This document shows, piece by piece, positions 1,881 to 23,273 of a stretch of 64,000 nucleotides of DNA. The stretch covers positions 1,184,001 to 1,248,000 of the forward strand of contig OZ219816.1 of NCBI GenBank assembly GCA_964291235.2, written 5' to 3'. Under the pieces are notes generated by a model. The model was not told the origin of the DNA, searched no databases, and was given only the letters and a program-made list of their open reading frames with translations. A program made the translations under genes and the position numbers. This DNA is from Vicinamibacteria bacterium (GTDB taxonomy: Bacteria; Acidobacteriota; Vicinamibacteria; Marinacidobacterales; Marinacidobacteraceae). Each line of letters begins with the position of its first letter. The first letter of the stretch is position 1.

Positions 1881-2081
1881 CAGCAGCCGTGGACGAAGTC
1901 ACGCGGCATTGGAACGGCGATGCATCCCGGCCGAACCGGGGCGCTCCGCGCCCCTCATCGTTGCGTTTCGGTCGACATACACTCGGTATTCCTCCCTCAC
2001 GCGCCGCCCCCACCGGGAGACCGGGTCGGCCGGGCGCCTCGCCACTCTCGGCGCTCACGGGGGTTTCACCACAGACTGCTA
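1881..2081. mobile_element. MITE-like non-autonomous element, copy 1 (chimeric ends)
   Basis: Shares the core CTCATCGTTGCGTTTCG.TCGA.ATACACTCGGTATTCCTCCCTCACGCGCC with 7496-7717 and 25240-25424; imperfect terminal inverted repeats (TIRs) CAGCAGCCGTGG...CCACAGACTGCTA. Confidence 0.8.
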
Positions 2082-5068: not shown

Positions 5069-6601
5069 GTGGCGGTTCCAGCCTCTTCCCGGCGGGAGAA
5101 ATCCCAAGCCGGCCCGGGATCGCGTCGAGCCCGGTTGAAGAACGGGCGGAAGGGTGAGACGATCCGAGCCGTGCGTAGCGGCTTTTTCCCCACCTTTGCG
5201 CCCGACCGCCGGGTCCGGCGTCCGTTCCTGATCGGACTCTTCGTGCTCACCGTAGGCGGTAGCGGGGCCCTGGCGCCCACCGCCGCAGCCGAGCGGCCTT
5301 CCCGGAAGTCCGTCTGGCCCGAGGTTCAACGCGACGGCAAGTCACTTGTCATTGGCCGCTTCGTGGGCAAATTCGAGAGCCCCGATTTCCGTTCGCGCCG
5401 AATCGTGCTGCGCCATCGGGATACCGGCCGTAACGAAACCCTTTCGGTGGACGACGGGCTTGGCCTGATCAACGAATTGGTTCCGCCGGGCGTCTATGAC
5501 GTGGAGGCCATCGAGGCCGTCTATTTCCCGGACATCCGTCCCATGAATACCCGGCGCTTCCGCCCGATCCGCCAGCGCTTCACGGTCGCGCCCCGGGAAC
5601 ACGAGCGGGGGGAGACGCTGATTTCCGTCCCTGCCGACCGCCCGGTCTATATCGGCACGATACGCGCCGCCGCCGAGCGGCAGGGAATGGTGTACGAGGG
5701 GCAGAAACTCCGCGTTCTGGATGACTTCGACGTCGCGATGGAGCGCCTGGCGGTGGCCTATCCGGTGCTCGCCGCAAGTCTGAGCGAGCGAGCGGTCGTC
5801 CCGCAGCGACACTTCATGCTCCGTCCTACGGTTCCGGAACCGCCGCTGGAGATGATTGTCGGGATGGAGGATCCGATCCGGCAGGCGCGTCGCTACATCG
5901 AGGACGGGAAGTTCGAACAGGCGATCAACTGGCTCTCGACGTTCATGCCCGTGTCGGACGCGCAAAGGAACGATGTCCGACTGCTGATCGGCGAGTCGCA
6001 CCTCGGGTCACGGAACCTGGACCTCGCCATCGAAGAACTCGGTGAGGTGTTGCTTCAGAATCCGACGAACCTGCGGGCCCTGCGACTTCTTGCCCGCTCC
6101 CACTCTCTGAATGGAGACCTTGAGGACACCGAGAGCCTCTATCAGGCCTTGCTCGACCTCCGTCCGCGCGACGCGGAAGCCCATCTGCAACTCGGCTATC
6201 TCTACGCCCTCCGGTCGGACGGCGCGGGTGCGGAAGCAGCGTTCGAGGTGGCTTTCGAGACGGATTTCGACTACCTCATGCACGACCTGGCGCCGTTCCT
6301 GATGGCGGTTCGCGAACGTTCCAACAATCCGGGCATCCTCTACGAGCCGCCGATCCTCCGCAGCACGCCGGTGCCGATGGGAGGCAGCGGTGGATCGCGT
6401 CGCTCCTCGGAGCGAGATGGAATCATGGTGCTCATCGATCACCGCGGCCGGGTCAAATCAGCGCACTTCGCACCCGAGAGTTCGAACCGGGTCCACCAGA
6501 CCATGATGTCGCTGGTTCGTGGCCGTTACACGCCCGCCACGCTCAACGGAGTGGCCGTGCCCTCCATCATGGCTTTGGGCAACTTCGGGGCGGAGCGCTA
6601 A
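5069..6601 (+). CDS. TPR-containing exported protein with possible C-terminal TonB-C-like domain
   Basis: TPR-like helices (PRDAEAHLQLGYLY); C-terminus VLIDHRGRV...RYTPATLNGVAV. The real start is probably ~5171. Confidence 0.6.
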   Translation: MAVPASSRREKSQAGPGSRRARLKNGRKGETIRAVRSGFFPTFAPDRRVRRPFLIGLFVLTVGGSGALAPTAAAERPSRKSVWPEVQRDGKSLVIGRFVGKFESPDFRSRRIVLRHRDTGRNETLSVDDGLGLINELVPPGVYDVEAIEAVYFPDIRPMNTRRFRPIRQRFTVAPREHERGETLISVPADRPVYIGTIRAAAERQGMVYEGQKLRVLDDFDVAMERLAVAYPVLAASLSERAVVPQRHFMLRPTVPEPPLEMIVGMEDPIRQARRYIEDGKFEQAINWLSTFMPVSDAQRNDVRLLIGESHLGSRNLDLAIEELGEVLLQNPTNLRALRLLARSHSLNGDLEDTESLYQALLDLRPRDAEAHLQLGYLYALRSDGAGAEAAFEVAFETDFDYLMHDLAPFLMAVRERSNNPGILYEPPILRSTPVPMGGSGGSRRSSERDGIMVLIDHRGRVKSAHFAPESSNRVHQTMMSLVRGRYTPATLNGVAVPSIMALGNFGAER

Positions 6602-6714
6602 ACCCGGACCGCTCTCCCGGGCCGCCGCGCCCGTTTGTTGCTCCAGCGGTTACCGCGGGCGGTCGAATTCGCCCAGGCGCGAAAGGCTGTTCCGCCGAAC
6701 GGCGATTCGGGGAT

Positions 6715-7485
6715 TCAGGGTGAGTCGGCCGGCAGCGCCAGGACCCGGTCCACTTCGGCCTCGAGGACTGCGAAGGGTTGGTCGGTGCTCGGCGCCGGAT
6801 GAAGGAGACCGTTCCGGTCGATCAGGAAATTGGCCGGATAGCGCGCCGTCTCGGTGAAGATGCCGGGCATCACGCCGTTCTCGAGAGCACCGGGGAGCAA
6901 CAACGGATAGTCCACCGACAGGACATCGTTGCGAAAGCCCTGCTGGATGGACTCCTCCTCCGTGGAAACACCGTAAACCACCAGCCCCTCAGCCGCCCGT
7001 TCATTGGCCAGGCGGTCCAGTTCCGGCATTTCGGCACGGCACGGGGGACACCAGGTGGCCCAGATGTTCACGAGCACGACCGATCCACGGTGATCCGACA
7101 GGCGGTGGACTCTGCCGTCGAGGTCCTCGGCCACAAACTCGGGCGCGGCCACTCCAGAAAGGGCCAAATTGGCAGCCTGCCGGGCGCGGCGAACGGCGCC
7201 GCCGACGGGAGCAATGACCAGTCCGAGCGAAAGGAAGGCCACGGACGCCCCCAGCCAGCCGGTCCAGCGAAGTCCTCCGCCCCGATAGCCGAGCCAAGCG
7301 CGGCGGAGCGCGAAAGCGGGAGGCGCCAGCATGGCGAGCGCCACCGCACCCAGACGGAACAGGTAGTCCTCGTCCGGGTTCGAACTCAATCGGGTGAGCC
7401 CCAGATACACGCCGGCGCCAAGAACCGCGGAGAGGAAAGGCGCGAGAATCCCGGACCACAGAGGGGAACGCAGCGGGCTGGTCAT
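6715..7485 (-). CDS. Membrane-anchored TlpA/ResA-family thiol-disulfide oxidoreductase
   Basis: VLVNIWATWCPPCRAEMPEL thioredoxin motif after three TM segments. Confidence 0.9.
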   Translation of the reverse strand: MTSPLRSPLWSGILAPFLSAVLGAGVYLGLTRLSSNPDEDYLFRLGAVALAMLAPPAFALRRAWLGYRGGGLRWTGWLGASVAFLSLGLVIAPVGGAVRRARQAANLALSGVAAPEFVAEDLDGRVHRLSDHRGSVVLVNIWATWCPPCRAEMPELDRLANERAAEGLVVYGVSTEEESIQQGFRNDVLSVDYPLLLPGALENGVMPGIFTETARYPANFLIDRNGLLHPAPSTDQPFAVLEAEVDRVLALPADSP

Positions 7486-7495
7486 CGAGGCAGCC

Positions 7496-7717
7496 TAGCA
7501 GCCTGTGGACAAAGTCACGCGGCATCCGAACAGCGATGCATCCCGGCTGAACCGGGCCGCTGCGCGGACCCTCATCGTTGCGTTTCGATCGAAATACACT
7601 CGGTATTCCTCCCTCACGCGCCGCCCCCACCGGGAGAACTGGGTCAGCCGGACCCCCACCGGGAGAACTGGGCCTCACTGTTCTCGGTGCTCACGTCACT
7701 TTGTCCACAGGCTGCTA
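7496..7717. mobile_element. MITE-like element, copy 2, with perfect 20-bp terminal inverted repeats
   Basis: TAGCAGCCTGTGGACAAAGT (7496-7515) is the exact reverse complement of ACTTTGTCCACAGGCTGCTA (7698-7717); conserved core; no transposase ORF. Confidence 0.88.
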
Positions 7718-8731
7718 CCCGGAGCGGGCGGGGTCTTTCTGGTAGCGGGACCGGATCCCGGGAATGAGATAGCGGGAAAAAAGTGTTTCCGCGTCGTACA
7801 CGGGATCGAAACGGAAATCCCGTCGGGCGGCCGCATCGTCCACCGCGGCCGGCCAGCTCGCGACAATTCGGTCCCGGGCTTCGTCGCGTTCGAAAAAGAC
7901 CGCCAATTCCGGAAAGTCCCGGGTGACGCGGGCGATGATCTCGGCGGCCGACAGGCTCGGGCCGCCCAGGTTGTAGGCGGTCCGGGTCAGCGCGCTCTTC
8001 TCGCACGACGCCAGACGAAGGATCCCCTCCACGGCGTCCGGCATTGCGCAAAAGGGCAGGCGGGCGCCGGGTTTGACAAAGCACCCGTACGGCTCTCCGC
8101 GGGCCGCCGCGTGGATGAGTTCGGGCGCCCAGTCGCTCGTGCCCCCCTGGGGCAGGGTGTCCGAGGAGATGAGCCCCGGAAGCCGCACCGCCCGGAAGTC
8201 CAGACCGCTGCTCCGGCGTTCCACGGTGGCGCCCAGCCGCTCGACGTAGAGCTTTTGGGCGCCATAGAGCGTCGCCGGGTCGAGCCAGTCGTCCTCACCG
8301 ACGGGTCCCGCGGCGTCCTTCGCCTCTTGGGACGGGAGGCCGTACACCGCGATCGAACTCGGAAAGACGAAGCGGATCGGATCTCCAGGCGTCGCGAGGT
8401 CCGCGGCCATGGCGACGACACGGGCGGCGCCGTCCGCGTTGACCTGGTGGGCGAGCACCGGAACCGACTCCGCGCGGGTGGAGAGGATCGCGGCGAGGTG
8501 GAAAATCCTGGACGGCCGGTAGCGCTCCAGGAGCGTTTCCCAAAGCGCGGGATCGAGGATATTGCCCTCGAAATGCTCCCGGTGAATTTCGGGATCCGCC
8601 CCGGAAAGGGGTCGGAGGTCCACGGTAACCACCGGTTCGCTTCGACCTTCGACGAGGCGGTGCAGAAGAGCCTGTCCGATCTCGCCGGCGGCTCCGGTGA
8701 TCAGAGTTGCCGAAATTCGTCCGGTGCTCAC
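7715..8731 (-). CDS. NAD-dependent epimerase/dehydratase (L-threonine 3-dehydrogenase-like extended SDR)
   Basis: LITGAAGEIG Rossmann motif, FHLAAILS, YGAQK (YxxxK), GGTSDW. GTG start at 8731 overlaps the upstream stop. Confidence 0.85.
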   Translation of the reverse strand: MSTGRISATLITGAAGEIGQALLHRLVEGRSEPVVTVDLRPLSGADPEIHREHFEGNILDPALWETLLERYRPSRIFHLAAILSTRAESVPVLAHQVNADGAARVVAMAADLATPGDPIRFVFPSSIAVYGLPSQEAKDAAGPVGEDDWLDPATLYGAQKLYVERLGATVERRSSGLDFRAVRLPGLISSDTLPQGGTSDWAPELIHAAARGEPYGCFVKPGARLPFCAMPDAVEGILRLASCEKSALTRTAYNLGGPSLSAAEIIARVTRDFPELAVFFERDEARDRIVASWPAAVDDAAARRDFRFDPVYDAETLFSRYLIPGIRSRYQKDPARSG

Positions 8732-9480
8732 TTTGCGAAACCCGTGGCGGAAACGTGGTGGCCGAGTACGCGCAGCAGGAAGAACCGGATGTCGTGGATC
8801 TCCGGTTCCGACACCTGATGGGCCATCGGATACTCGTGGTACTCCACCGGCCAGCCCGCGCTTGCGAGGGTGCGCTGACTCATGGCGGCAAAATGGAGGG
8901 GGATCAGCGCATCGAAGGAACCATGGGCCTGGAAGATGGGCGTGGGCGGCTTCGGCGGAGGAGCGACTGAGTTGAACTCGGCGAGATAGGTGGAAAGGGC
9001 CAGGACTCCGGCAGCCCGAATCGGGGGCTCTCCCCCGGGGCCCGAACACGTCGCCGCCTGAAGAACCACCGCGCCGCCCTGCGAGAACCCCGCGAGCACC
9101 AGGCGTTCGGGGGGAATTCCCCGTGCCCGCTCGTGCTCCACCAGGGCCCGTACCCCGGCCACGGACTCGGCCAAGTGCTTTCGATTCACCCCCGCGTCAC
9201 GCCGCACGGACTCGATGTCGAACCAGGCACGCATCTCGGCGCCCCCGTTAATGGTCACCGGACGAACGGGCGCTTCCGGGAAGAGGAAACGGATTCCGAG
9301 CGAATCCGGCAGACGGAACGCGGGAACGATCGGCTCGAAGTCGTGTCCGTCGGCGCCGAGCCCGTGAAGCCAGATGACGGTGGCTCGATGCTCCCCCGCA
9401 GGCGGCAGTTCGACGATGCTCCACGGTGGGGTGGCATCCGCGAGAGGGCCACTGGGGGGCCGTGTGGCTGGCTCGGGCAC
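8728..9480 (-). CDS. Carboxylesterase/phospholipase (alpha/beta hydrolase, abhydrolase_2)
   Basis: WLHGLGADG, MRAWFDI, GFSQGG nucleophile elbow, HGSFD and MAHQV. Confidence 0.92.
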   Translation of the reverse strand: MPEPATRPPSGPLADATPPWSIVELPPAGEHRATVIWLHGLGADGHDFEPIVPAFRLPDSLGIRFLFPEAPVRPVTINGGAEMRAWFDIESVRRDAGVNRKHLAESVAGVRALVEHERARGIPPERLVLAGFSQGGAVVLQAATCSGPGGEPPIRAAGVLALSTYLAEFNSVAPPPKPPTPIFQAHGSFDALIPLHFAAMSQRTLASAGWPVEYHEYPMAHQVSEPEIHDIRFFLLRVLGHHVSATGFAK

Positions 9481-9485
9481 GCGGG

Positions 9486-12400
9486 TCAGAATTGCTCCTC
9501 CAGCACGTATTCGAGAACCTCCAGGTAGTGGGCGGCGTCGGCGGGAGAAAAGGCCAGCGGCGGTTTCAATTTGATGACGTTGGCGTCTGGGCCGTCGGTG
9601 CTGTTCAGGACTCGAAAATCGCGGAGGCGATTCACGAGGCGAGTCGCTTCGGCAGCGGCGGGCTCTCGAGTACCGGGATCCCGCACCAGTTCAAACCCGA
9701 GAAACAGTCCGCGCCCCCGGACCTGACCGAGAATAGGGTAGCGGTTCTGAAGGTGCTTTAGCCCCTTCAGGAGAGTGTCGCCGACCGCTCCGGCGTGCTC
9801 CGCGAGGCGTTCCTCACGGATGACGTCGAGGACCGCGAGGCCGGCAGCGCAGGAAACCGGATTCCCGCCGAAGGTGTTGAAGTACTCCATGCCGTTGTCG
9901 AAGGAAGCAGCGAGTTCGCGTGTGGTGACCACCGCCCCGAGAGGATGTCCGTTGCCGGCGGGTTTCCCGAGGGTCACGATGTCCGGCCACACCGCCGGCT
10001 TGCCGCGCTGGACGTCGAGGAACGCCCAGAAATCGGGGCCCACCCGCCCGAAACCGGTCTGCACTTCATCTGCCACGATGAGTCCTCCAGCGTTCCGGAC
10101 GGCTTGGTAGAGCGCTCGCACATAGCCGGGAGGCGGCACGATCTGGCCACCGCAGCTCAGGATGGCTTCGCTGATGAGGGTGGCCGGTCCAAGTTCGCCC
10201 ACCCGGGTTGCGGCATCGGTCGTCAGGGCAGCGGCGAAATCGGGGCCGCTGTCGCGAAAGCGACCGCGGAAACCATCCGGCATGGGCAGCCGATGCAACC
10301 AGGCAGGCCCCGGGCGTCCGCCCTTGCCATCGAGCTTGTATGGGCTGACCTCGATCAGCGAGGTCAGGTTGCCGTGATAACCGCCGTCGAAGACCAGGGT
10401 TTCCCGCCGCCCCAGGTGGGTGCGCGCGATACGGAGCGCCAGGTCGTTCGCCTCGCTTCCGGAGTTCGTGAGGAAGACCACCTCAAGGGGGGCGGGAAGG
10501 GTCGCCGCAAGACGCCCGGCATAGTCGGTGAGGTTTCGATAGAGATAGCGGGTGTTCGTGTTGAGAAGCTGCGCCTGTGCCCGGATCGCCTCGACCACCC
10601 GGGGATGGGCGTGTCCGACGTGACAGACGTTGTTGACCATGTCGAGGAAATCACGGCCCTCCTGGTCGTAGAGGCGGGCGCCGCGTCCGCGCACGACCTG
10701 TATGGGGGATTCATAGGACAGGCTGAGTGCTCCGGAGATGTGCCGCTTCCGGAGCTTCAGGAGACGGTCGGTTTCATCGGCCCCGAGATCCTTCACGGTC
10801 GCGGCGGCGGCATCGTCGTCAAGCCCCAGGAAGCCGGTGGGATCGGGGCTGAGCGCCGCGAGTACGGGAGCGTCGCGTCCGGTGCTCCGGCGGGGAGGAG
10901 ATCCCCCGAAGTCGTCGGTAGTCACCTGAAAGCTCAGGCGTGCGGGCCGTTCGGGCGTGGTGAAGGCCATGAGCCGGCCGAAGACGGCTCCCCGGGACAG
11001 CTCGTCGCCCGGACGTAGCGACGACAGGCACGTCGCGTCGAGATGGCGGTAGACCGTCCAGAAGGACTCGCCGTTCCACCGGTGGCGAAGGCCGACCGAG
11101 GCGCCGCTTTCCTCATCGCCGCCGTTACTGCCGCTGGCCCACGCCACCCGGGCATCCAGCGGGGCCCGTACGGAGGTTCCGGCGGCGCGGAACACTTCGG
11201 CGTCCAACTGGCGGGTGGCCGGCTCAACGCCTGGCGGGCGGAACCGTGGACCGGAGGTTGCTTCGGCGCAGCGCGGCTCGAGATAGCGTCCGACTGCTGC
11301 CCCGCCGTCTTGGGTCGCCGCGGCAACGACCTTCTCGATGCTGTGCGTGACGCAGGCCGGATCCACCTTGGGACTGACGGGGGAAAGGTCCAGGATGCGG
11401 ACCCGGCCGTCGAGCGAGATCGGCGGAATGGCGTTTGCCGCGGCCTGGCGAATGGCGGCGTGTCGGGTTTCCAGGTTGTGTCGGGGGGCGTGGCCGGCGG
11501 CCATTCGGAAACGCCCGCGGGTCAACTCGGGCGCTTCCGAGTCGAGGGCTGCGAGGAACCGCCAGATGCCGGCCTCGCTCGTCATGAGATACGCCTCCCG
11601 GTCCGCCCCCGGCACATGCTTCCGGCGGAGGGCGGCAACGCCGGCGCTCACCAAAGCCCTTAGCGCGACCGCGGTCCGGAAGGCGTCGGCCTCCTCCTCG
11701 TCCACCGGCCGTTCACGGGCAAAACCGGCGAGTACGGTGGCCGCGGCCCGGAGCGGCTCCACGGCGGCGGCTGCGACATAGACGGCTGCGGTGGCGGCTT
11801 CGATGATTGCCGGCGCCCGGAGTGCGTCGCCGAAATCGAGCAGTGCGAGATCGTCGGGGGACGCTGATTCCGGCTCCGCCTCGAGGAGGAGCACGTTGTC
11901 GTCATTGGCGTCGTTGTGAAGCGCGGTGTCGGGTAGTTCGAAGAGCCGCGGCATCCGGCTCCGGATCGAGTCGCCGACTCGGCGGTAGAGCTCGCCGGCC
12001 TCCCCTTCGGGCAACACCTCCACGGCCGCTTCCATCACGGCAACGGCGTGAGCCGGGTCCCAGGGGAGCTCCTGATGGTTCAGGCCGGGATGATCAAACC
12101 CGGCAAGCGCCCGCTGCAAGCGCCCCAGCAGGCGTCCGACGGACTCCAGCAGAACTGGCGGGCGGCGGCGGAATGCCGAGAGGGGCCGGCCACGGACAAA
12201 GGGCAGGAGGCGGACCAGGTGCTCACCGCCCCGGAAGGGGCAGGCGACGAGATGTTGCCCGCCGGCGGGCACGCTCTCCGAGAGATTCAGGCCGGGATCG
12301 CGGGCGCGGGCGTGCCGGGCCATGCGGAGCTGCATATCCACCCGGGATCGATCCTCGGCGCGGCTGCTGATCTTCAGGACGAACCGGGCGCCCTGACCGT

Positions 12401-12560
12401 CCTCCAGCAGAAAGTTGCGGTCGCGCTCCCCGGGAAGCGGGGTTGCGGTGGCTTTGATCCCCCACTGGGCCAGGGCCACCGCGGCTGCCTCCCCGGGTTC
12501 CACCCGCGGCCGGGTCGCCAGGGGATCGAGAGCGAACGGAAGCGGTTCCGCGGGCGGCAT
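9486..12560 (-). CDS. Fused aminoglycoside-phosphotransferase-like kinase + degenerate M23-like domain + class-III aminotransferase (hydroxylysine kinase/phospho-lyase type)
   Basis: [16 protein letters not shown] and LLDFGD kinase motifs; [36 protein letters not shown] and YFNTFGGNP aminotransferase motifs. Confidence 0.88.
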
Positions 12561-12568
12561 ATCGGGGA

Positions 12569-13942
12569 TCAGCGGAGCAGAAGCCGAAGCAGGCCGAGCC
12601 GGTTTCGATACGGGGGATACCGCACCGGGGGATCCAGCCAGGTTGCCGCGTTCAGGACTGCCCGCGAATGGGACAGCAGATCGAAGCCATGGACCCCGTG
12701 ATAGTTGCCGTGGCCGCTCTTGCCGACGCCGCCGAAGGGCAGGGCGGGATTGGCGCACTGGACAACGGCGTCGTTCGTAACGAGGGCTCCCGAGCGCAGT
12801 GCCGAGGCGGCTCGCCGAACCGGCTCCCGCCGCCGGGAAAATACGTAGAGCGCTAGGGGATCCGGGTGCATGCCGATCTCTTCGAGTGCTTCGTCGAAAT
12901 CGCGATAGGGAAGCAGCGGCAGAATGGGCCCGAAGATTTCCTCCCGCGCGGCCGGGTGCTCCGCGGGCCAGGGGCCCGTGATGGTGGGGCCGAAGTAGAG
13001 GCGCTCGAGGTCCCGGTCGCCGCCCTTCAGGAGCCGGAGTCCGGTCAACAGTCCTTCGAGGCGCTGGAAATGATCCCGGTGGACGATCCTGCCGTAATCG
13101 GGACTCCGGGCCGGTGCTCCCCCATAGAAGCGGTCCAGGTTTCGGCCCAGCATCTGGACGAACTCGTCGAAGCGTTCCTCGGGAACAAGCACGAAATCGG
13201 GTGCGACACAGGTCTGCCCGGCGTTGAGGAACTTCGCCCAGGCAAGTCGGCGCGCCGCGACTCGCAGGTTCGCGCTCCGGTCCAGGATCGCCGGACACTT
13301 GCCTCCCAACTCAAGAGTGACGGGTGTCAGACAACGTCCGGCCGCTTCCGCGACGAGGGCTCCCACCCGCCGGCTGCCAGTGAAGAGAACGTGGTCGAAC
13401 CCCTGCGTGACGAGTTCCCGAGCGGTGTCGGGTCCCCCTTCGACGACCTGGACGAGTCCGGGCGGCAGCGCGGGGGGCACCAGTTCGGCCAGCTTGCGGG
13501 CGGTCGCCGGAGCGTGCTCGGACGGTTTGATGATCACCGCGTTCCCGGCCGCGATGGCGGCGACGGCCGGCGCCAGCGTCAACTGCAGGGGGTAGTTCCA
13601 CGGGGCGATGACGAGGACCGCTCCGACCGGGGCCGGCTCAACGCGGCTGAGCGCCGGCATGACGGCCAGTGGGGTCCCCACTCGGCGCGAACGCATCCAT
13701 CGCCGCAGGTGACGCCTGGCGTGACGAATCTCCGCGAGGACCAGGCCCGTCTGGGTGGCCCAGGTCTCAAACGCCGGTGCCCCGAGATCGTCGCGCAGCG
13801 CGTTTTCCCAGGTGCGCCGCTGGTCGCGGAGGAGCCCCGCGAGCGTTCCCAGCGCCTCGCTGCGAAACGCCCTGGACGCGGTTTTCCCCGACGCCACCAG
13901 GCGGCGCGCCCGCTCGCGGACCTCTGGCACGTCTTTGTTCAC
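12569..13942 (-). CDS. Aldehyde dehydrogenase (ALDH3-like)
   Basis: IAPWNYP, KPSE, FTGS, LELGGKCP, NAGQTCVAPD, EEIFGP and PFGGVGKSG motifs; GTG start at 13942. Confidence 0.93.
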   Translation of the reverse strand: MNKDVPEVRERARRLVASGKTASRAFRSEALGTLAGLLRDQRRTWENALRDDLGAPAFETWATQTGLVLAEIRHARRHLRRWMRSRRVGTPLAVMPALSRVEPAPVGAVLVIAPWNYPLQLTLAPAVAAIAAGNAVIIKPSEHAPATARKLAELVPPALPPGLVQVVEGGPDTARELVTQGFDHVLFTGSRRVGALVAEAAGRCLTPVTLELGGKCPAILDRSANLRVAARRLAWAKFLNAGQTCVAPDFVLVPEERFDEFVQMLGRNLDRFYGGAPARSPDYGRIVHRDHFQRLEGLLTGLRLLKGGDRDLERLYFGPTITGPWPAEHPAAREEIFGPILPLLPYRDFDEALEEIGMHPDPLALYVFSRRREPVRRAASALRSGALVTNDAVVQCANPALPFGGVGKSGHGNYHGVHGFDLLSHSRAVLNAATWLDPPVRYPPYRNRLGLLRLLLR

Positions 13943-14047
13943 AGGCGGCGCGAGTATACGGAGCGGCGCCTTCCGGATCGCGACCCTGGGGCCCGAGGCC
14001 GCTAGCAGCCGCTGGATACACTTCGCGGACGCGAACGACCGACCGCG

Positions 14048-14689
14048 ATGCGATTTCTCGAACCCACGCTGCCTTCGCCCGCGACCGCTCTGGATGGGCG
14101 GGCCGAAGCGATACCGATACCCGAGAAACACTTCGTTCTCAAGACTCCGCTGGCGCCGCCGTGGCCCGCGGGAATGGCGGAAGCCGTGTTCGGGATGGGT
14201 TGTTTCTGGGGTGCGGAACGGCTCTTCTGGACTGCCGCGGGCGTTTACACCACGGCCGTCGGGTATGCGGGCGGCCTGACCCCGAACCCCAGCTACCGCG
14301 AGGTCTGCACCGGCCGTACCGGGCACGCCGAGGTCGTTCGGGTGGTGTTCGATCCAGGCCGGACGTCGTACGAGAGGCTCCTTCAAGTCTTCTGGGAAAA
14401 CCATGATCCGACGCAGGGGATGCGCCAGGGCAACGATGTCGGGACCCAGTACCGATCCGCGATCTACGCCATCGGGATGGAGCAGCGTCGCGCGGCGCTG
14501 CGGGCCAGGGATGCCTACCGGGAGCGTCTCGGAATGGCGGGATACGGAGACATCACCACGGAGATCCGGGAGGCGCCGGTCTTTTACTACGCCGAGGACT
14601 ACCACCAGCAATACCTCGCGAAGAACCCGAGCGGCTACTGCGGCATCGGCGGTACCGGGGTTTCCTGCCCGACCGGCATCTCCGCCTGA
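14048..14689 (+). CDS. msrA: Peptide-methionine (S)-S-oxide reductase
   Basis: GCFWGAE active site, [25 protein letters not shown]. Confidence 0.97.
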
Positions 14690-14696
14690 CTCTCCG

Positions 14697-15068
14697 GTGG
14701 CGGACAACGCTCCGAAGACAGCGGCCGAGAAAGCCGCGGCGCTCGCTCTGGACCGCGTGGAACGTCACATCTTCCTGTGTGCCGATGCGGACCAACCCAA
14801 GTGCTGCGACCCGCCCCGCGGCTGCGAGAGCTGGCTCTACCTCAAACGCCGCCTGGAGGAACTGGGGCTCGCCAACGGCCCGGCGGGAGGGCGGGTGGCG
14901 CGCAGCAAGGCGAACTGCCTCCGCGTCTGCGCCGAAGGCCCGATCGCCGTGGTGTACCCCGAGGGCGTCTGGTACTCGGGGATGACGCCGGAAGCCATCG
15001 AGGAGGTCATCCAGAGCCACCTGATCGGGGGAAGACCCGTCGAGAAATACCGCATCCCCAACAGTTGA
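14697..15068 (+). CDS. Thioredoxin-like [2Fe-2S] ferredoxin
   Basis: RHIFLC...KCC...KANCLRVCAEGPIAVVYPEGVWY; GTG start at 14697. Confidence 0.88.
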   Translation: MADNAPKTAAEKAAALALDRVERHIFLCADADQPKCCDPPRGCESWLYLKRRLEELGLANGPAGGRVARSKANCLRVCAEGPIAVVYPEGVWYSGMTPEAIEEVIQSHLIGGRPVEKYRIPNS

Positions 15069-15089
15069 CGCTCCGGGGACGGGCGCCGG

Positions 15090-18000
15090 CTACGCCAGGT
15101 AGCGGCGGAGCAGACGTTCCGCTTCGCTGGTAGCGATTCCACGGCGGCGGGCGTAGTCCTCCAGTTGATCGCGGCCGACGGCGCCGATCGAGAAGTAACG
15201 TGATTCAGGGCTTGCGAAGTAGAAGCCGGCGACCGAGGCCGCCGGGAGGATCGCGAAGCTCTCGGTGAGCTGGACTCCAATCGCCTGCTCGGCATCGAGC
15301 AGACGGAATACCTCTTCCAGCATGCCGATATCCGGCGTCGCCGGATATCCCGGGGCGGGGCGGATTCCGCGGTAACGCCCGCGGATCAGATCCTGATGCG
15401 TCAGATCGTCCGCCTTCTCGTAGCCCAACTCGCAGCGAGCGCGCCGGTGGAGCCACTCGGCGAGCGCCTCGGCAAGTCGGTCCCCGAGTGAGCGCAGCAA
15501 GAGGGCTTCGTAGTCGTCGCCTGCTCTCTCGGCAGCCTCGACGAGTTCGGCCAACCCGTGGCCGGCAGTCACGGCGAACGCCCCCAGGACATCGGCTCCG
15601 GCGCCTGACGACGGCCCCTCGGCCGCCCGGTTCAGAAAATCGGACACCGCGAGGCGCGGCCCCGGGCGGTCTTCCTGTTGCCGGAGCGTTGGGAGCCGGG
15701 TCAGCGGCGGATCCTCAGGCCGTCCGGGGCGCCAGATGAGAATGTCGTCGCCCTCGCTCGCCGCGGGGAAAAACCCATAGACGGCCGTTGGCCTCAGGGC
15801 TCGCTGCTGGGCCAGTTCCTCCAGTTTGCGGAGGGCGTTGTCGAGGAGTTCCCGAGCCTGAGCGCCGGTGGGTTCTTGCTCAATCAGCGCGGGGAAGGCG
15901 CCGCGGAACTCCCAGGCATGGAAGAACGGGGTCCAGTCCACGTACGGAATCAAGTCCCGGATGGGGACGTTCGGGATCACGCGGCAACCCCAAAAAGGCG
16001 GCTCGATCCGCTCCGTTACGCCAAACCTGGGGGCGCGGCGACGGGCGGCGGCAAGCGCGAGGAGTTTCGGACGCCGGCGGTCCGTGCGATGTCGCTCACG
16101 CTCCTGGGCATCGCGGTTGTCCTCCAAAAAGGCGGCCGAGGCCGTCCCCAGGAGAGCCCGGACGACCCCCGAGGTACGCGAGGCATCGGCCACGTGAACA
16201 ACCGGGCCCGAGCGGGCGGGGGCGATGCGGAGCGCGGTATGGCGGGATGAGGTCGTTGCACCGCCGATCAACAGCGGCAAGGAGACGCCGCGGCGCTCCA
16301 TCTCCGCGGCGAAGCGCTCCATCTCGTCGAGAGACGGGGTGATGAGTCCGGAGAGGCCGATCAGGTCGGCGCCCCCTTCGGCGGCGGTGTCGAGAATCCG
16401 GTCGGCGGGCACCATGACGCCGAGGTCTTCCACCTGGTACCCGTTACAGGCCAGCACGATCCCCACGATGCTCTTCCCGATGTCGTGGACGTCGCCCTTC
16501 ACGGTAGCCAGAACGATCTTCTCCCGAGGGCTGCCGGCCTCCTCCGACTCCATGTACGGCTCCAGGACCGCGACCGCCCTCTTCATCACCCGCGCGCTCT
16601 TGACGACCTGCGGAAGGAACATTCTTCCGTCCCCGAAGCGGTCGCCGACGACGCGCATTCCGTCCATGAGCGGGCCCTCGATGACTTCGAGGGCAGAGGC
16701 CATCTGGCGCCGCGCCTCGTCGGCGTCCCGTTCGACGAATTCGAGCACGCCGTTGACCACTGCGTGAGCGAGTCGCTCCCCGACGGGCCGGCGACGCCAG
16801 GAATCGTCGGTCAGGGAAGTTCTTCGCTCCGCGCGGGCGGCGCCAGCCACCTCGAGCAAGCGATCGGTCGCGTCGCCGCGCCGCGCGAGCACCACGTCTT
16901 CGACCCGCTCGCGCAGCGATGGCTCGATCTCGTCGTAAACGGGGAGCCGTCCGGCATTCACGATCCCCATGTCGAGTCCCGCGGCGATGGCGTGGTGCAA
17001 GAAGACGGCGTTCATGGCCTGTCGCACTCCCTCGTTGCCGCGAAACGCGAAGGAGAGATTCGAAATGCCTCCCGAGACGAGCGACCCGGGACACGCTGCC
17101 CGGATTCGCGGAATCGCCTCGAGGAACTCGACGGCGTAACGGTCGTGTTCGGGAATTCCCGTGGCCACGGCGAGGACGTTCGGGTCGAAGATGATGTCCT
17201 CGGGGAAAAAGCCGGCGGCTTCGGTCAGCAGGCGATAGGCGCGGGCACAGATGGCCGTCTTGCGGGCCGCATCCACCGCCTGGCCCTCCTCGTCGAAGGC
17301 CATCACGATGACCGCCGCCCCGAAGCGGCGAATCCGGCGGGCGGCGGCCACGAAAGCCTCCTCTCCGTCCTTCAAGGAAAGCGAGTTGACCACCCCCTTG
17401 CCGGGAAGACAGCGGAGGCCGGCCTCGATGACGTCGATCCGGGAGCTGTCCACGATGATCGGAAGCCGGGCGATGTCCGGCTCCATGGCGATGAGGTTCA
17501 GGAACCGGCTCATCACGTTCGCGGAATCGAGCAGCCCCTCGTCCATGTTGACGTCGAGCAGGTTGGCGCCGCCCTCCACCTGGTCGCGCGCCACCCCCAC
17601 GGCGGCCTCGAAGCGCTCCTCCCGAATGAGCCGGGCGAAACGGCGGGAGCCGGTGACGTTGGTGCGCTCGCCCACGATCAGAAACGCCGATGCCGGCCGC
17701 ACCAGCGGTTCGGTCCCGGCGAGTTGCAGCGCCCGAGAGGATTCGGGGACGCGGCGCGGCCGTGCTCCGGCCACCGAGCTACGAATCTGCCGGATGTGCT
17801 CCGGCGTTGTGCCGCAGCAGCCGCCAACGAAGTTGACGAGCCCGGCCGCTGCAAGTTCACCGAGGGCCGCCCCGGTGATCTCCGGAGCCTCGTCATAGCC
17901 GCCGAGATCGTTCGGAAGGCCGGCGTTCGGGACTGCCCCCACCGGCACCGGAGCGAGACGCGCGAGGGTCGCCACGATGGGGCGCATCGCTTCGGCGCCG

Positions 18001-18740
18001 ATCGAGCAGTTCGCCCCCACCGCCGTCACCTCCGCGTGGGCGACGGACACCCAGAAGGCCTCGGAGTCCTGACCGGTGAGATTGCGCCCTCCCTGGTCCA
18101 CGGAGGTAAAGGAAACGAGAAGGCCGGGGTCTCCCGGCGCCTCGGCAATGGCTTCCCGGGCGGCGTCGAGGGCCGCTTTGGCATTCAGGGTGTCGAAGCA
18201 CGTTTCGACAAGGAGCAGGTCGGCGCCGCCCGCGAGGAGTCCCGCCGCCTGCTCGCGGTATGCCGAGCGCAACTCGTCCCAGGTCACGGCCCGGAAAGCT
18301 GGATCCGAGACGGTGGGTGAGACGCTCAGGGTCCGGTTGGTGGGCCCCATGGAGCCCAGGACGAAGCAGGGCCGACCGGCGGCGTCGGCGGCGCGGCGGG
18401 CCGCCTCCGCCCCCAGGCGGTTGAGCTCGAAGCTGCGATCTTCGAGCCCGTAGTCCAGCAGCGATATGGCGTTCGCGTTGAACGTATTGGTGGTGAGCGC
18501 TTCCGCGCCGGCATCCAGGTAGAGCTCATGCACCTTCTGGATCAGCTCTGGACGGGTCAGCGACAGCACGTCGTGAAGTCCCTGGAGCGGCTTCGTATGG
18601 CCGCGGAGCCGTTGGCCCCGAAAGCCGGCTTCGTCGAGGCGCTCCGCCTGCAGCATCGTTCCGATGGCGCCGTCGAACACGAGGACGCGCTCGGAAAGCG
18701 CCCTCAGGAAGCCCGGTCGGCCCAGCCGCGGTGCGGTCAT
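15090..18740 (-). CDS. metH: Cobalamin-dependent methionine synthase
   Basis: [45 protein letters not shown] (B12 motif) and RPAPGYPA; 1216 aa. Confidence 0.97.
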
Positions 18741-18825
18741 AAAGCACCGGAAGTCTAGGAGTCCGCCCGGGGCGGCGTTCGGCTGCCGGTACCATGGACT
18801 CCACTTCAGTCCGCGAGACCCGCAA

Positions 18826-20049
18826 ATGCCGCTTCATATCCAGGTCGTCCTCGGCGCGGTCGGCGGTGTGCTGGCCGGGATACTCCTCGGCGAGCAGGCC
18901 GCGGTCCTGCAGCCGATCGCGGATCTGTTCGTGCGTCTGCTGCGGATGATCATCGCACCGCTGATCTTCGTCACCCTGGCCCTCGCGTTGACCAGGACCG
19001 GGGGCAAAGGTACGGGCAGGATTGGCGTCCGGGCGATTGCCTACAACCTGAGCACGCTGGCGGTGGCGTTGGCGGTCGGTATCGGAATCGCCGTCTGGCT
19101 CGGTCCGGGACGGGGAGTGGACATCTCCGCCCTGGGTGGCGCCGAGGAATCCGCGGGGGTGGCTGCGGGGCAGGCGCGCTCCATCATGGACATCCTGGTG
19201 GGAATCGTGCCCACAAACGTCGTCGGCGCCTTCGCCGAAGCCGAGGTCCTTCAGGTTCTGTTCCTCGCGATCCTGTTCGGGGTAGCCGTAAACGCGCTCG
19301 GCAGCGAACGCGTCAGGCCGCTGATCGACGTGCTGCAGGCGGTCAACGACGTGCTGTACCGGGTCGTGCACTGGGTGGTCTTGCTGGCGCCCGCCGGGGT
19401 GTTCGCGATCCTGGCGGCCGTCGTGGGGCAATCCGGACTGAACATCCTGGGGACGCTCTTCTGGTATGTCCTGGTGTGTCTCATCGCGACGCTGGTGCAC
19501 GTCGGCGGGGTTCATGCGCTGCTCCTCCGCGTTTGGGCTCGCCAGCCTCTGGGGACGCTGTTGCGCGCGTTGCGCGAACCGCTCCCCATCGCTTTCGCCT
19601 CGGTCTCGACTGCCGCGGCGCTTCCGGTCTCCATGGCCGCGGTCCCCCGCGAGACGGGAATCTCCGAGAAGGTCGCGGGGTTTGTGTTGCCGTTGGGCGC
19701 CGCGGCGGGACGAGACTCGAGCGGGATCTATCAGGTCGTCTCGGTCGTGGCCATCGCGCAATTGGTGGGCCGTACCCTCGACCCGGGCGAGTTGGTGCTC
19801 CTTTGGGTGACCGCCATCCTGAGTTCGCTGGCGGTTTCCGGTGTTCCCGCCGCCAGCTTCGTGAATCTCACGATCCTCCTCGGGGCGCTGGGGCTGCCGG
19901 TGACGCTCTCGGCGCTGGTGCTGGCCGTCGAGCGTCCGCTGGATCACCTGCGGACGAGCGGAAACCTGATCGGTCAGATCTCGAATGCGATTTTCACCGG
20001 AGCCACGACCGGGGAAATGGATTCACGAGAAGCGCAACCCGGCGAATGA
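18826..20049 (+). CDS. Dicarboxylate/amino acid:cation symporter (DAACS family)
   Basis: [37 protein letters not shown] and LDHLRT motifs; hydrophobic throughout. Confidence 0.9.
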
Positions 20050-21050
20050 GGGCCGCACGGCTGGGGGCCCTGTGCGGCCTGGCCCTCGTGGCGTGCGGCG
20101 GAGGCGAGACATCCTCCCCAAGCCCGCCAACCGCGCCGACGGCGCCGCCCGCATCGTTCAGCGTGCGCGGGGCCGTCACGCGAACCGTTCTTGGGGGGCC
20201 GGTCGCCGGCGCCACGCTCAGCGCCGGCGGAGCGACCGCCCGTTCGGGAGCGGATGGATCCTTCGGACTCGACCTGCCGGCGGGCGAACATCGGCTTACG
20301 GTGTCAGGGCCGGGAATCGTGGAACGCACCACGACCATCCGCGCTCCCCAGGATGCGGTTGCCCTTGATGTCGTTGTTGACGATTCGCCCTGGAACCTCG
20401 ATTTCTACCGGGAGATCGCCCGCAACGGGGCTGGAGGCGGGGATCTCGAAACGCTGATCCCCTGGGATGGCGAGCCCACGTTCTACATCGATGCGCGCCC
20501 GGAACCCACCACCGGCGCCGAGATTCCGGCGGAGACGATCGACTTCGTGGAACAGGCCATCCGGATCACCGTCCCGCTGCTCAGTGGCGGCCGCTACCTG
20601 GGAGAGCGCGTCGAGGTGACTCATGAACCGCCGGCGGACATGACGCCCGGCACCGTCATTTTTCGCTGGAACGCCGAGGAGGTATCCGAATTCGCGGACA
20701 GTGCGGATGCCTTCGCCTATCGGGTCGGTGGCGGCGCAAACGTGGTGGTGTTCCGGCACATCCCGGAAACCTGGGCCGTCCATCATGAAATCGGCCATGT
20801 GATGGGGCTGTTCCATCCGCTTGGCGGCCTTCGCCCGTCTCACATGTGGTACTCCGGCGAACTCGAACCTCCGCACTTCACCGAGTGGGACATCTTCCAC
20901 GCGCAGGTCCTGTATTCCCGGCCGGCGGGCAACGCGGATGTGGATGTGGACCCGCCGGGGTTCGTTACCCGGGGGACGAACGCGGCCGGGGTCTCGGGCA
21001 GCGGGCCGATCGCCTGCTTCTTCCCGAAGCCGGGTCCGCCGCGCCGCTGA
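20046..21050 (+). CDS. Lipoprotein with Ig/carboxypeptidase-regulatory-like domain and metzincin-type Zn-protease domain
   Basis: LVAC lipobox, Pro-rich linker, HEIGHVMGLFH (HExxHxxGxxH) and downstream Met (SHMWY); ATGA overlap with the upstream gene. Confidence 0.75.
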   Translation: MRAARLGALCGLALVACGGGETSSPSPPTAPTAPPASFSVRGAVTRTVLGGPVAGATLSAGGATARSGADGSFGLDLPAGEHRLTVSGPGIVERTTTIRAPQDAVALDVVVDDSPWNLDFYREIARNGAGGGDLETLIPWDGEPTFYIDARPEPTTGAEIPAETIDFVEQAIRITVPLLSGGRYLGERVEVTHEPPADMTPGTVIFRWNAEEVSEFADSADAFAYRVGGGANVVVFRHIPETWAVHHEIGHVMGLFHPLGGLRPSHMWYSGELEPPHFTEWDIFHAQVLYSRPAGNADVDVDPPGFVTRGTNAAGVSGSGPIACFFPKPGPPRR

Positions 21051-21056
21051 CCCGAT

Positions 21057-22691
21057 TCAGCGCAGCAGTAGGTTTCGGGCGCGCCGGTCCGTTTCCGGCC
21101 TCTCGAGGGCGGCGAGAAGCCATTGGCCGAAGGCCGGCCCGTAGCGGTTCGCGAAGACGAACGGACTCAAGCGCCGCTCCTGTGGGGTCCCCCCGGGAAA
21201 GAGAGCGTTTCGGGCTCTCAGGAAACGCTGCCGGCGTTCCTCATCGCGGCGTTTTGCGGCACGCACGCTCTTCGCTTCGAGGTCGTTGACGATGGAAAGC
21301 ACCTTGCCCCGGGCGCGGTGGGCCGCGGCGGTCAGGCTCCCGTCCACGGCGCTGATGGTCCGTTCCACTTCGCCGAACGAGGAGTCGAGCGCGGCCTTGG
21401 CCTCGGCGAACGCGGCAGCCGCCGCCGGATCGGCAGCGCGCCGGTTGAGGGCGGCTTCGTCGCCGGCGGAAAGCTCGTCGAAGGCGATGCCGTCCCCGTC
21501 CAGCACCCGGAGCTGCGACCGCGTGAGTATCGCGACCTGATGGCGGGGAATCACCAGCGGACGCGGAATCCGGTGGATGTCGTAGAGGTCGCCCATTTGT
21601 GCGTGGTAGGCGATTTCGGAAGGCCCGCCAACGTACATCGCCGTGGGGAGCAGGAAGTCCTGTACGAGGGGGCGCAGCAACACGGCAGCGCTGAGACGCT
21701 CGACACAACCTTCGAGCAGGGCATCCGGGGGCCTTCCGGAGGCGTCGGTCCGGACCCGCGTCCGGACTCCGCTCGCTCCCGTGCAGAAGACGCCGTAGCC
21801 CTCGGGAGCGGCCTGACCCGGAAACCCGATAGCTTCGATCTCGCGCGTTCGCAGAGCGATTTGCCGGCGGCCTTCGGCTTCGTGTTCGATGGCCGCCTCG
21901 TACACCGGAAAGGCGAGGTGCTTGAGTTCCGGCGCCGTCGGGTCCATCACCACCAGCCCGGTTCCTCGGGACAGATGCAGGAGGAGGCGCCCGAATGCCT
22001 CGGGAAGGGAGTGTCCCGGGGCGTAGCACTCCTGGACCACGGCGTGGAGTTCGGCCGAGTACTCGGTTTCGGGCAGGATTTCCCGCAACTGCCGGTGCAG
22101 GTCGAGAACGGAGTCATCGAGGATGCGTTGAAACGCCGGGAGGCCGAGGTGTTCGTCCCTGGGTTCGTAGCGGAGCGGATGTGGATCTCCGGATCGATCG
22201 AGGAACCAGGCATCCCGAATCTCCTCGAAATCATGATCGTCACCCTCGATCCAGAAGACGGCGACGGTTCGCTGTCCGCTCCGCGCTTCGAGTTCGCGCG
22301 CGGCGGCGACGGTGGACATCGCCTTGATGAGCGAATAGAGCGGGCCGCCGAAGAGTCCGGGCTGCTGGCCGGTAACCACGGCAAGGGTGTCGGAACCGGC
22401 CAGGCGCTGTGCCGCCGCCAGCGCCGCCGGGTCCGCTCCCCAGGTGCGGTTCGTCGCGGCGATCACCTCTGCGGCGCGGGTCCGGGTGGCGTCAGCCGCG
22501 CGGGCTCGTCCCGCGCGTTCCCAGGCTTCTTCCGCAAACGGATCGGGAAGAAGGGTCGCAAACCGCTGGGGGTTGCGGCTCCAGGCGTCGAAGAAGGTGC
22601 CGGCGCGGACCCGAAGCGTTCGCACGAACGGGACCTCGTCGCGGGAGGCGGCGGGGTCGGGGGGACGGCTCAGCGTCTCGGTGGCGTTCAT
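21057..22691 (-). CDS. bshC: Bacillithiol biosynthesis cysteine-adding enzyme
   Basis: VVTGQQPGLFGGPLY, FWIEGDDHDFEE, LLRPLVQDFLLPT, YVGGPSEIAY and PQER motifs; 544 aa. Confidence 0.9.
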   Translation of the reverse strand: MNATETLSRPPDPAASRDEVPFVRTLRVRAGTFFDAWSRNPQRFATLLPDPFAEEAWERAGRARAADATRTRAAEVIAATNRTWGADPAALAAAQRLAGSDTLAVVTGQQPGLFGGPLYSLIKAMSTVAAARELEARSGQRTVAVFWIEGDDHDFEEIRDAWFLDRSGDPHPLRYEPRDEHLGLPAFQRILDDSVLDLHRQLREILPETEYSAELHAVVQECYAPGHSLPEAFGRLLLHLSRGTGLVVMDPTAPELKHLAFPVYEAAIEHEAEGRRQIALRTREIEAIGFPGQAAPEGYGVFCTGASGVRTRVRTDASGRPPDALLEGCVERLSAAVLLRPLVQDFLLPTAMYVGGPSEIAYHAQMGDLYDIHRIPRPLVIPRHQVAILTRSQLRVLDGDGIAFDELSAGDEAALNRRAADPAAAAAFAEAKAALDSSFGEVERTISAVDGSLTAAAHRARGKVLSIVNDLEAKSVRAAKRRDEERRQRFLRARNALFPGGTPQERRLSPFVFANRYGPAFGQWLLAALERPETDRRARNLLLR

Positions 22692-23269
22692 GGTGTTACC
22701 GGCCCGATCCGGCGCCAGGGAAAAATCCGGAAGACCGCTTCGCCAATGACGTCGTCTCCGGATATGGCGCCCCAGTGGCGACTGTCGCTGCTGGCGCCGC
22801 GGTTGTCGCCGAGCACGAAGTAGTCACCGGGAGCGAGAACGACCGAGACTGTTCCCGGCCCGTCGAAGGTCGTGGGGCCACCGGCTCCGGCCGCATTCGC
22901 CACCGGGGTCACGACCTCCGACAGGGACATCCCCGTGTCGGATGCGGGCAGCACCTGCACGTCATTGCCGCGAAACTGGACCGTGTCTCCCGGCACGCCG
23001 ATCACCCGTTTCACCATCACGGTGCCCTCGTCGGAGGGATCCCGGAAGAGCAGGACATCATCGCGAGCGATCGAGGTGACCCGGAGGCTCAGCTTGTTCA
23101 CCACGACCCGCTCGCCCGAGCGGAGGGTTGGCGCCATGCTCGATCCCTGGATTCGGTACACCTGGGCACCGTAGGCCATGACGATCCAGGCGCCCGCGGC
23201 CGCGATTGCCGCCGTGCGCAGGAATCCGAGCACCGGCCGGAGCGGGCCGGGTTTTGGAAGTTGCTCCAT
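22688..23269 (-). CDS. lepB: Signal peptidase I
   Basis: GSSMAPTL (Ser), VKRVIGVPGD (Lys), YFVLGDNRGASSDSRHWG. Confidence 0.93.
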   Translation of the reverse strand: MEQLPKPGPLRPVLGFLRTAAIAAAGAWIVMAYGAQVYRIQGSSMAPTLRSGERVVVNKLSLRVTSIARDDVLLFRDPSDEGTVMVKRVIGVPGDTVQFRGNDVQVLPASDTGMSLSEVVTPVANAAGAGGPTTFDGPGTVSVVLAPGDYFVLGDNRGASSDSRHWGAISGDDVIGEAVFRIFPWRRIGPVTP

Positions 23270-23273
23270 CGGA

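Follow-up and report, generated by a model that had tools for sequence, protein, structure and literature searches.

A short repeat-borne sequence module in one family of Vicinamibacteria-labelled Acidobacteria and its likely use as a landing site by an IS110 clade

The window analyzed here is the whole 64,000-nt stretch C2:1184001-1248000 of a Vicinamibacteria bacterium genome (G000; 3.45 Mb, 68% G+C, two contigs; GCA_964291235.2, contig OZ219816.1). It carries copies of a short sequence, here called the cassette, whose 18-mer, CCCCACCGGGAGAACTGG, is the core of a 19- to 20-nt module, (G)C plus CCCCACCGGGAGAACTGG. Comparisons of filled and empty alleles show that this block is added precisely, without target-site duplication, at about 26 recurrent positions within other repeats, and they support its being an added block and not an ancestral part of those repeats. 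The cassette is confined to one family of Vicinamibacteria-labelled Acidobacteria, and its sequence context strongly supports a role as the landing site of a clade of IS110-family insertion sequences (IS). The explanation of the whole that we regard as reasonably probable is a family-confined module that is spread mainly by the repeats bearing it, rarely reaches new sites, and serves as the IS110 landing site.

The exact 18-mer occurs in the window at positions 7625 to 7642 and 7654 to 7671. With three or fewer mismatches, the window contains four cassette matches against 0.14 expected, and none of 100 shuffles gave four. The first three matches lie inside two copies of a ~190-bp repeat that resembles a miniature inverted-repeat transposable element (MITE), and the fourth, GTCC plus ACCGGGAGAACTGG (54098 to 54115), is the right flank of an IS110-family element, adjoining its right end. 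MITE copy 1 (1884 to 2078; no strand is assigned to this or to the other two copies) has the terminal inverted repeats CAGCC(T)GTGG...CCACAG(G/A)CTG and carries, at a position termed site D, a variant cassette (2006 to 2025, plus strand) with two mismatches in the 18-mer (2008 to 2025). MITE copy 2 (7499 to 7714) carries two cassettes, one at site D (GC plus CCCCACCGGGAGAACTGG; 7623 to 7642, plus strand), where it stands in place of the TT of the empties, and one at site E (AC plus the 18-mer; 7652 to 7671, plus strand). A first-pass annotation of this DNA had reported these four matches and a third MITE copy without an insert; all of its window coordinates hold, and MITE copy 3 (25243 to 25421) is empty both at site D (TT at 25366-25367) and at site E (C|G at 25378|25379). 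The degenerate cassette that it had also noticed is present (28775 to 28794, plus strand) at the junction of a truncated MITE (~28746 to 28819), exactly where paralogous truncated MITEs hold intact cassettes. Long Logan contigs on window positions 6500 to 26499 break at both MITEs (~7524 to 7688 and ~25234 to 25423), and the joints listed at the window MITEs derive from other MITE copies.

Among the 51 full-span MITE copies of G000, 27 have the empty length, 7 are longer by 18 nt, 1 by 36 nt, 5 by 54 nt, and 1 by 72 nt, with the remainder being shorter (9 copies) or containing another insert (1 copy). In the G000 MITE alignment, cassette blocks fall at six discrete positions and in both orientations, and head-to-tail doubles have a period of exactly 18 nt. 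The MITEs of the congener G013 show additional positions beyond these six. Across all sequence analyzed, 78 flank contexts account for the 585 exact copies with distinct flanks, and 26 of these contexts have at least three members. The hosts include the MITE, the repetitive extragenic palindromic (REP) hairpins that flank the gene of a REP-associated tyrosine transposase (RAYT), and the loops of GC hairpins, and the cassette often stands at the foot or in the arms of REP hairpins. One MITE copy of G000 (C2:1054335-1054669) has a ~90-bp GC-rich hairpin-like insert near its left end together with three cassettes.

The filled and empty states define a reproducible insertion signature. Writing [18] for the 18-mer, empty AAC|GCC (n = 64) becomes AGC[18]GCC at site A, AAT|ACC (n = 197) becomes AGC[18]CCC at site G, CTT|GTC (n = 88) becomes CGC[18]GTC at site D, GAA|CCG (n = 33) becomes GGC[18]CCG at site B, GAT|GCA or GAT|GGA (n = 179) becomes GGC[18]GCA at site H, and CGT or CGC|CGC becomes CCC[18]CGC at site C. 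Empties outnumber filled copies at every site compared. The target is not duplicated, the sequence grows by a net 18 nt (19 nt in two REP contexts), and two to three target bases are replaced. At the two positions immediately 5' of the 18-mer, the original AC, TT, AA, AT, or CG gives way to GC, CC being less frequent there; because these two bases are usually overwritten, the unit behaves as ~20 nt replacing 2, a "20 for 2" rule. In 75 flank contexts, position -1 is C in 69 and position -2 is G in 47, and position +1 is C or G in 71 (44 and 27, respectively). Insertion at C|G sites, as proposed in the first-pass annotation, is therefore an approximation. The ends of the cassette are not complementary, so there are no terminal inverted repeats, and inspection found a weak 5-bp stem on the reverse strand and no real palindrome. 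As a rule for targets, insertion at the center of a palindrome fits the unique site described next (CCCG-CG-CGGG) and fails at most MITE sites.

The sole presence/absence case found at a unique site is a gene for an AcrB-type pump. In G013, an intact gene of the AcrB/AcrD/AcrF family (ACR_tran, 801 bits) carries the cassette in frame and thereby gains the residues PHRENW. Across the family, 2 of 28 orthologues are filled, those of G013 and its sister genome G001 (~96% identical to G013), and the other 26 are empty, including those of the next relatives, G008 (92%) and G004 (90%). In cassette orientation, the nearest empty orthologue, that of G008, reads GAGCCCG-CG|CGGGATG, and the filled gene reads GAGCCCG-GC[18]CGGGATG, which indicates that the "20 for 2" rule also holds where no homologous donor repeat exists. 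Copies with unique flanks on both sides number 6 of 121 in G000, 4 of 258 in a G013 sample, and 0 of 37 in a G001 sample, and at least 95% of cassette copies lie within repeats. The coexistence of filled and empty alleles, first suggested by the three MITEs of the window, is thus borne out on a larger scale, with 27 of 51 full-span MITEs and 26 of 28 AcrB-type orthologues being empty.

The cassette is not limited to the window sites. G000 contains 83 exact copies, 121 copies at one mismatch or fewer, and 194 copies at three mismatches or fewer; at one mismatch or fewer, a reversed-sequence control gave no match in G000 and none in all scanned genomes except one. At the same threshold, the cassette is present in all 15 congeners, ranging from 8 copies (G011) to 1566 (G013, in which 1288 are exact), with 747 in G001 and 692 in G008, and in 20 of 24 other family members, and it was found in none of 16 genomes scanned from two sister families. 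An exact-match scan of species genomes gave at least 114 stretches with the cassette; among the matches listed, 77 of 80 were metagenome-assembled genomes labelled Vicinamibacteria, Candidatus Marinacidobacterium, or Acidobacteria, and 3 were single hits elsewhere. An assembly artefact is excluded because the motif occurs in 21 independent assemblies. The restriction of all copies to the plus strand, which had been read from the window, does not extend to the genome, where copies at one mismatch or fewer are divided 67 to 54 between the plus and minus strands and show no strand bias against cumulative GC skew that would point to the replichores. MITE abundance does not dictate cassette abundance, as G009 has 38 MITE matches and 15 cassettes and G020 has 33 MITE matches and 1 cassette; four MITE-negative genomes that were also scanned have no cassettes. 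In G009, cassette-free MITEs form head-to-tail tandem arrays of three with an overlap of a few bases (C1:1754217-1754767 and C1:1812852-1813404). In the literature library searched, full texts gave no paper with the 18-mer, its reverse complement, or two substrings of it, except for a 15-mer in an unrelated zebrafish paper.

The IS110-family element of the window (52564 to 54099, plus strand; 1,536 bp) is one of five copies in G000 that are 98.8 to 100% identical. Its recombinase gene (52813 to 54075, plus strand; 420 aa) encodes the domains DEDD_Tnp_IS110 (PF01548, 98.4 bits) and Transposase_20 (PF02371, 35.4 bits), both above their cut-offs. The element splits a cassette hosted by a REP hairpin unit (GCCGGCCTCCAGGCTGGCACAGC; 54116 to 54138, plus strand). 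The left part of this cassette, CCCC (52560 to 52563, plus strand), follows the REP flank CACGGGAGC and ends in the CC that forms the core, and the second CC core together with the right cassette part (ACCGGGAGAACTGG) occupies 54100 to 54115 (plus strand). All five copies stand at GGGAGCCC-CC|IS|CC-ACCGGGAGAACTGG, at five loci with different outer flanks, with the core dinucleotide CC at both junctions and no other duplication. The CCCC at the end of the left flank means that the cassette (CCCCCACCGGGAGAACTGGG) is restored when the two flanks are joined at a single CC, in agreement with the earlier observation that excision of the IS at CC regenerates it. Five relatives that were read, with 63 to 82% protein identity over the matched part, are likewise all located at GTCC|ACCGGGAGAACTGG, in both REP and MITE hosts; they come from G014 (82%), G004 (63 to 64%), and a fragment in G013 (66%). 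These junctions strongly support the view, put forward in the first-pass annotation for the single window copy, that the cassette is the landing site of an IS110 clade. A second IS110 lineage, 42% identical to the window recombinase (e.g., L150, L156, and L157), is represented in G004 and G008 by five to seven copies and in G013 by one. Two of its G008 loci were read and are without a cassette, and its G013 locus has two 1-mismatch cassettes ~400 to 500 bp upstream of the gene.

The noncoding left end of the IS contains, in order, GAGCCCC, CGGTGG, GTGGAGAGT, and TATAGG, which are arranged as in the guides of a bridge RNA. A putative target-binding loop (52635 to 52681, plus strand) contains CCGGGAG (52635 to 52641) and GAGCCCC (52650 to 52656), which represent the sense of the flank plus cassette, followed by a hairpin and CGGTGGAC (52674 to 52681), the reverse complement of GTCCACCG. 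A putative donor-binding loop (52716 to 52750, plus strand) contains GTGGAGAGT (52716 to 52724), which resembles the IS right end GTGGAAAGT, and TATAGG (52745 to 52750), which pairs with CCTATA at the IS left end. In the bridge RNA rule given in PMC11208160, the two left guides (target and donor) pair with the bottom strand and the two right guides (target and donor) with the top strand, and each guide takes in the core; the guide order and strand found here agree with this rule. Judged from their sequences, both putative target guides read the cassette, the left one as three flanking bases plus CCCC and the right one as CCACCG, and recombination is predicted at the CC core. The earlier proposal that the right target guide is programmed against the cassette is upheld in that CGGTGG reads CCACCG, and it has to be widened, as the left guide reads the cassette too. 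Left-guide variants, GAGCCCC (G000 and G014), GGCCCC (G004, L148), and AGGCCCC (G004, L155), track the flanks GAGC, GGGC, and AGGC, respectively, and CGGTGGAC is conserved. In an alignment of four sequences, 97.4% of the cells of a two-loop fold pair, three of five helices are invariant, and both-side changes occur in the 5' hairpin only. Because the block is added, the IS110 lands in it, and the left end of the IS fits the bridge RNA guide rules, the chain of repeat, cassette, and IS110 that had been suggested from the window is real.

Recent change at cassette sites was followed in closely related sequences. Divergence from the site consensus is 1.8% in the cassette (18/990) versus 11.3% in the flanks (373/3300), with copies collected at four mismatches or fewer and some flanks including neighboring cassettes. 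Between G013 and G001, five clean differences were resolved at orthologous MITE loci. Two of them involve an identical 36-nt double (a variant unit plus a consensus unit) at site E, and another two affect site C, with one gain per genome. In the fifth, at site G, the block changes in step with three flanking bases and with a base 5 nt away. G013 also contains a 144.5-kb contig (C1) that is a 99.3 to 99.7% identical second copy of part of C4 (304 to 421 kb) and is probably a strain haplotig retained in the assembly, for which contamination is given as 10%. Between the haplotigs, one present/absent difference at site E is accompanied by a cluster of nearby single-nucleotide polymorphisms, and one locus switches between a "single, GGAC flank" allele and a "double, GGGC flank" allele. 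These recent differences look like gene conversion or allele replacement between MITE copies and not like unit-by-unit hopping. Of the two origins weighed in the first-pass annotation, a tiny mobile unit is supported as regards block addition, while its own mobility is a minority possibility, the resolved recent differences looking like MITE gene conversion. Deletions also involve the cassette, as 8 of 16 cassettes with three MITE left-flank types are joined to a noncognate right flank and a cassette at C2:1130994 joins a MITE end to a REP; we infer that direct cassette repeats mark many deletion junctions.

In the explanation that we favor, most of the copy number would come from riding on repeats and from gene conversion between repeat copies. 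New sites would be rare products of a DNA-level step that requires no reverse transcriptase and correlates with neither RAYT nor IS110, and the bridge RNA IS110 clade would parasitize the cassette carried by the repeats. The unit may have originated inside the MITE, in which a native segment, GCACCGAGAACAGTGAGGC, resembles the cassette. The RVT_1 profile gave no match in G000, G013, G004, G008, or G018. One RVT_1 match was found in G001 (C10:20331-20993, L192; in an 823-aa open frame), the sole one among the cassette-rich genomes tested. Y1_Tnp matches are present in 15 of 28 family genomes, with none in G013 (1566 copies), G004, G018, or G019. RAYT was considered as the cassette mover and rejected, as the cassette-rich genomes G013 and G004 have no Y1_Tnp match. 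At C1:15098-18334 (locus L011), G000 itself has a RAYT gene (243 aa, Y1_Tnp 32 bits) with arrays of the REP unit GCCGGCCTCCAGGCCGGCACAGC on both sides, a classic REP/RAYT arrangement, and it contains 276 REP matches at four mismatches or fewer. A search with the IS110 recombinase gave no match in G001 at E<=1e-30, only 37 to 42% relatives in G008, and only fragments and one 42% relative in G013.

Several points weigh against this explanation. The explanation is incomplete at its center, the step that creates new sites. An active machine specific for the sequence, or selection on it, would also account for a single 18-mer consensus in several genera and for a divergence far below that of the flanks, the divergence contrast itself being limited by ascertainment at four mismatches or fewer. 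The recent polymorphisms resolved (5 + 2) are all in conversion-prone MITEs, and they are compatible with unit-wise insertion elsewhere. The 5' GC rule has exceptions, with CC at site C and AC at a REP variant. In addition, with three helices being invariant in four sequences, the two-loop fold of the bridge RNA is compatible with the alignment and not proven by it.

The first alternative holds that the ~20-nt unit is the cargo of a dedicated transposase- or recombinase-like enzyme that would recognize it, excise or copy it, and paste it in exchange for 2 target bases, and it has a real but minor share of probability. Such an enzyme would account for the exact and reproducible block ends, for the tandem arrays with an 18-nt period, for the "20 for 2" signature at six sites (MITE sites A, G, D, B, and H and the AcrB-type gene), for the clustering of several MITE insertion sites within ~60 nt, and for a consensus that is identical across genera and far less diverged than its flanks. 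Several observations speak against it: the unit has neither terminal inverted repeats nor a target duplication, the RVT_1 and Y1_Tnp searches gave no candidate in the genomes listed above as having no match to each profile, at least 95% of the copies are in repeats, and the resolved recent changes look like conversion, including 36-nt doubles that move as one block. Cassette pairs 0.4 to 6 kb apart bound no repeated coding segment, and no gene flanked by such pairs was found. A corresponding share of probability, again a minority one, goes to the three-level parasite chain in which the 20-nt unit would itself be mobile, would prefer hairpin-forming repeats, and would have an IS110 clade specialized on it. 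If the dedicated enzyme is true, its cargo would be unusually small, and the smallest mobile DNA known would stand at the center of a parasite chain. A longer element with the two cassette halves as its ends was sought and rejected, since CCCACCGGGAG occurs outside the cassette in 14 of 130 cases and GGGAGAACTGG in 7 of 102, and these occurrences share no context except a MITE-derived one. The second origin weighed in the first-pass annotation, the footprint of another element, therefore finds no support.

In a second alternative, new sites would arise when a double-strand break takes up a cassette duplex during Ku-dependent end joining, with the loss of 2 to 3 target bases, and later spread would be by hitchhiking and conversion. 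The duplex could be a hairpin stem from an inverted cassette pair that runs through the flanking GC. Ku is present in all five genomes tested (in G000, the homologue at C2:94555-95091, and four relatives), so these bacteria probably have end joining and capture at a break is possible. Inverted cassette pairs are common, with complementarity extending into the flanking GC, both orientations occur, events in unique DNA are rare, and the insertions lose 2 to 3 target bases without duplication, all of which favors capture. The proposal is drawn purely from anatomy, however, and fails to explain why one fragment alone, with constant ends, is captured; we regard it as unlikely. Two other origins were rejected. 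A stable RNA does not provide the cassette, as the best match among tRNAs needs 5 edits in 20 and nothing was found in the rRNA operon except a MITE cassette upstream of it. Simple template switching would leave the two skipped target bases unexplained.

Retention or multiplication of the 18-mer for its function, whether as a binding site for a protein, an uptake signal, or an RNA motif, is compatible with the other explanations and appears rather improbable as the main one. The identical consensus in several genera, the low divergence relative to the flanks, and the in-frame copy kept in an intact pump gene in two species would be expected of such a site. Copy numbers from 8 to 1566 among congeners, with none in four family members, are unlike those of uptake signals or essential sites, and nearly all copies are in selfish repeats. 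Degenerate copies exist, as neutral decay of old ones would leave them. Moreover, a search of the whole window at the Rfam gathering score returned no family.

It is very unlikely that the IS110 element itself left the cassette behind as a by-product or footprint, whether through imprecise excision, single-strand circles, or "half-match" recombination of two targets. In favor of such an origin, the IS is invariably embedded in a cassette, cassettes mark deletion junctions, and single-strand circles and half-match recombination are reported for IS110 in two preprints (10.64898/2026.08.31.748434 and 10.1101/2025.10.25.684509). Cassette abundance does not follow the recombinase, however: G001, with 747 cassettes, has no match at E<=1e-30; G008, with 692, has only the 37 to 42% relatives, two loci of which were read without a cassette; and G013 has only the fragments and one 42% relative. 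The cassette is also unlike the IS ends, and hand-worked models in which an 18-nt circle integrates at a 2-nt core (GC, GG, and CC registers) do not reproduce the AcrB and site D junctions. The last alternative, that the repeats originally contained the cassette and the empties lost it by deletion, or that it is an assembly artefact, is a formal possibility only (homopolymer-length errors could shift the C-run by 1) and can be dismissed. The unique AcrB-type gene is unfilled in 26 of 28 orthologues, its two filled copies coming from sister genomes; empties outnumber filled copies at each site; MITE-rich genomes are nearly without cassettes; and the motif recurs in the 21 independent assemblies.

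The nearest precedents are the REP-targeting IS110 elements and the Neisseria system of dRS3 and Neisseria intergenic mosaic elements (NIMEs; PMC1797815). IS621 of Escherichia coli and ISPpu10 of Pseudomonas putida share with the window IS110 a recombinase with DEDD and Transposase_20 domains and guide-like segments in the left end, together with a core dinucleotide at both junctions and many copies in one repeated intergenic sequence. Unlike them, the window IS110 does not target a host repeat but an 18- to 20-nt add-on present in several unrelated repeats, its core is CC, and the left-guide variants of its clade follow three bases outside the cassette. The prophage recombinase that uses dRS3 presumably belongs to the IS110/Piv group. 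PMC1797815 describes dRS3 as a dispersed 20-bp sequence with hundreds of copies between other repeat units, and as a proposed recombinase site that is used for integration by the recombinase of a filamentous prophage. As defined in PMC1797815, dRS3 has inverted arms around a variable center (ATTCCC-N8-GGGAAT) and flanks RS units. Unlike dRS3 so described, the cassette is a fixed, nonpalindromic sequence that sits inside repeats and one gene instead of flanking repeat units, with two 5' bases overwritten.

Other classes of short repeats are more distant. REPs and REP doublets forming hairpins (REPINs), with their RAYTs, are like the cassette short, abundant, extragenic, and lineage specific, but the cassette has no real palindrome and its abundance does not track RAYT, as no Y1_Tnp match occurs in G013, G004, G018, or G019. 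MITEs are likewise noncoding, multicopy, and polymorphic for presence and absence; the cassette, by contrast, is ten times shorter, has neither terminal inverted repeats nor a target duplication, and lives inside a MITE. Rickettsia palindromic elements and the GC clusters of yeast mitochondria are short repeats that occur in frame in genes or spread in noncoding DNA, and they are palindromic, tens to ~150 bp long, and found in AT-rich genomes. They are thus unlike the cassette in being longer and palindromic, and the cassette has one in-gene case. DNA uptake sequences have a uniform high density that includes genes, whereas the cassette varies from 8 to 1566 copies among congeners and has unique flanks on both sides in only 6 of 121 copies in G000.

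Elsewhere in the window, Logan contigs from four runs show many alternative joints at 16200 to 17800 that skip 76 to 508 bases, and word depth is raised ~2- to 7-fold, a pattern that suggests a variable region of tandem or dispersed repeats unconnected with the cassette.

The cassette and its IS110 clade would provide a natural and well-replicated case of bridge RNA programming, in which an IS clade is specialized on an add-on borne by repeats. The cassette also supplies an empirical insertion signature, a 20-nt block in exchange for 2 bases with no duplication and no reverse transcriptase, and we know of no described bacterial element that explains it. In this family, one short sequence reshapes repeats through junction deletions and blocks moved by conversion and, in one case, adds six residues to an efflux pump.

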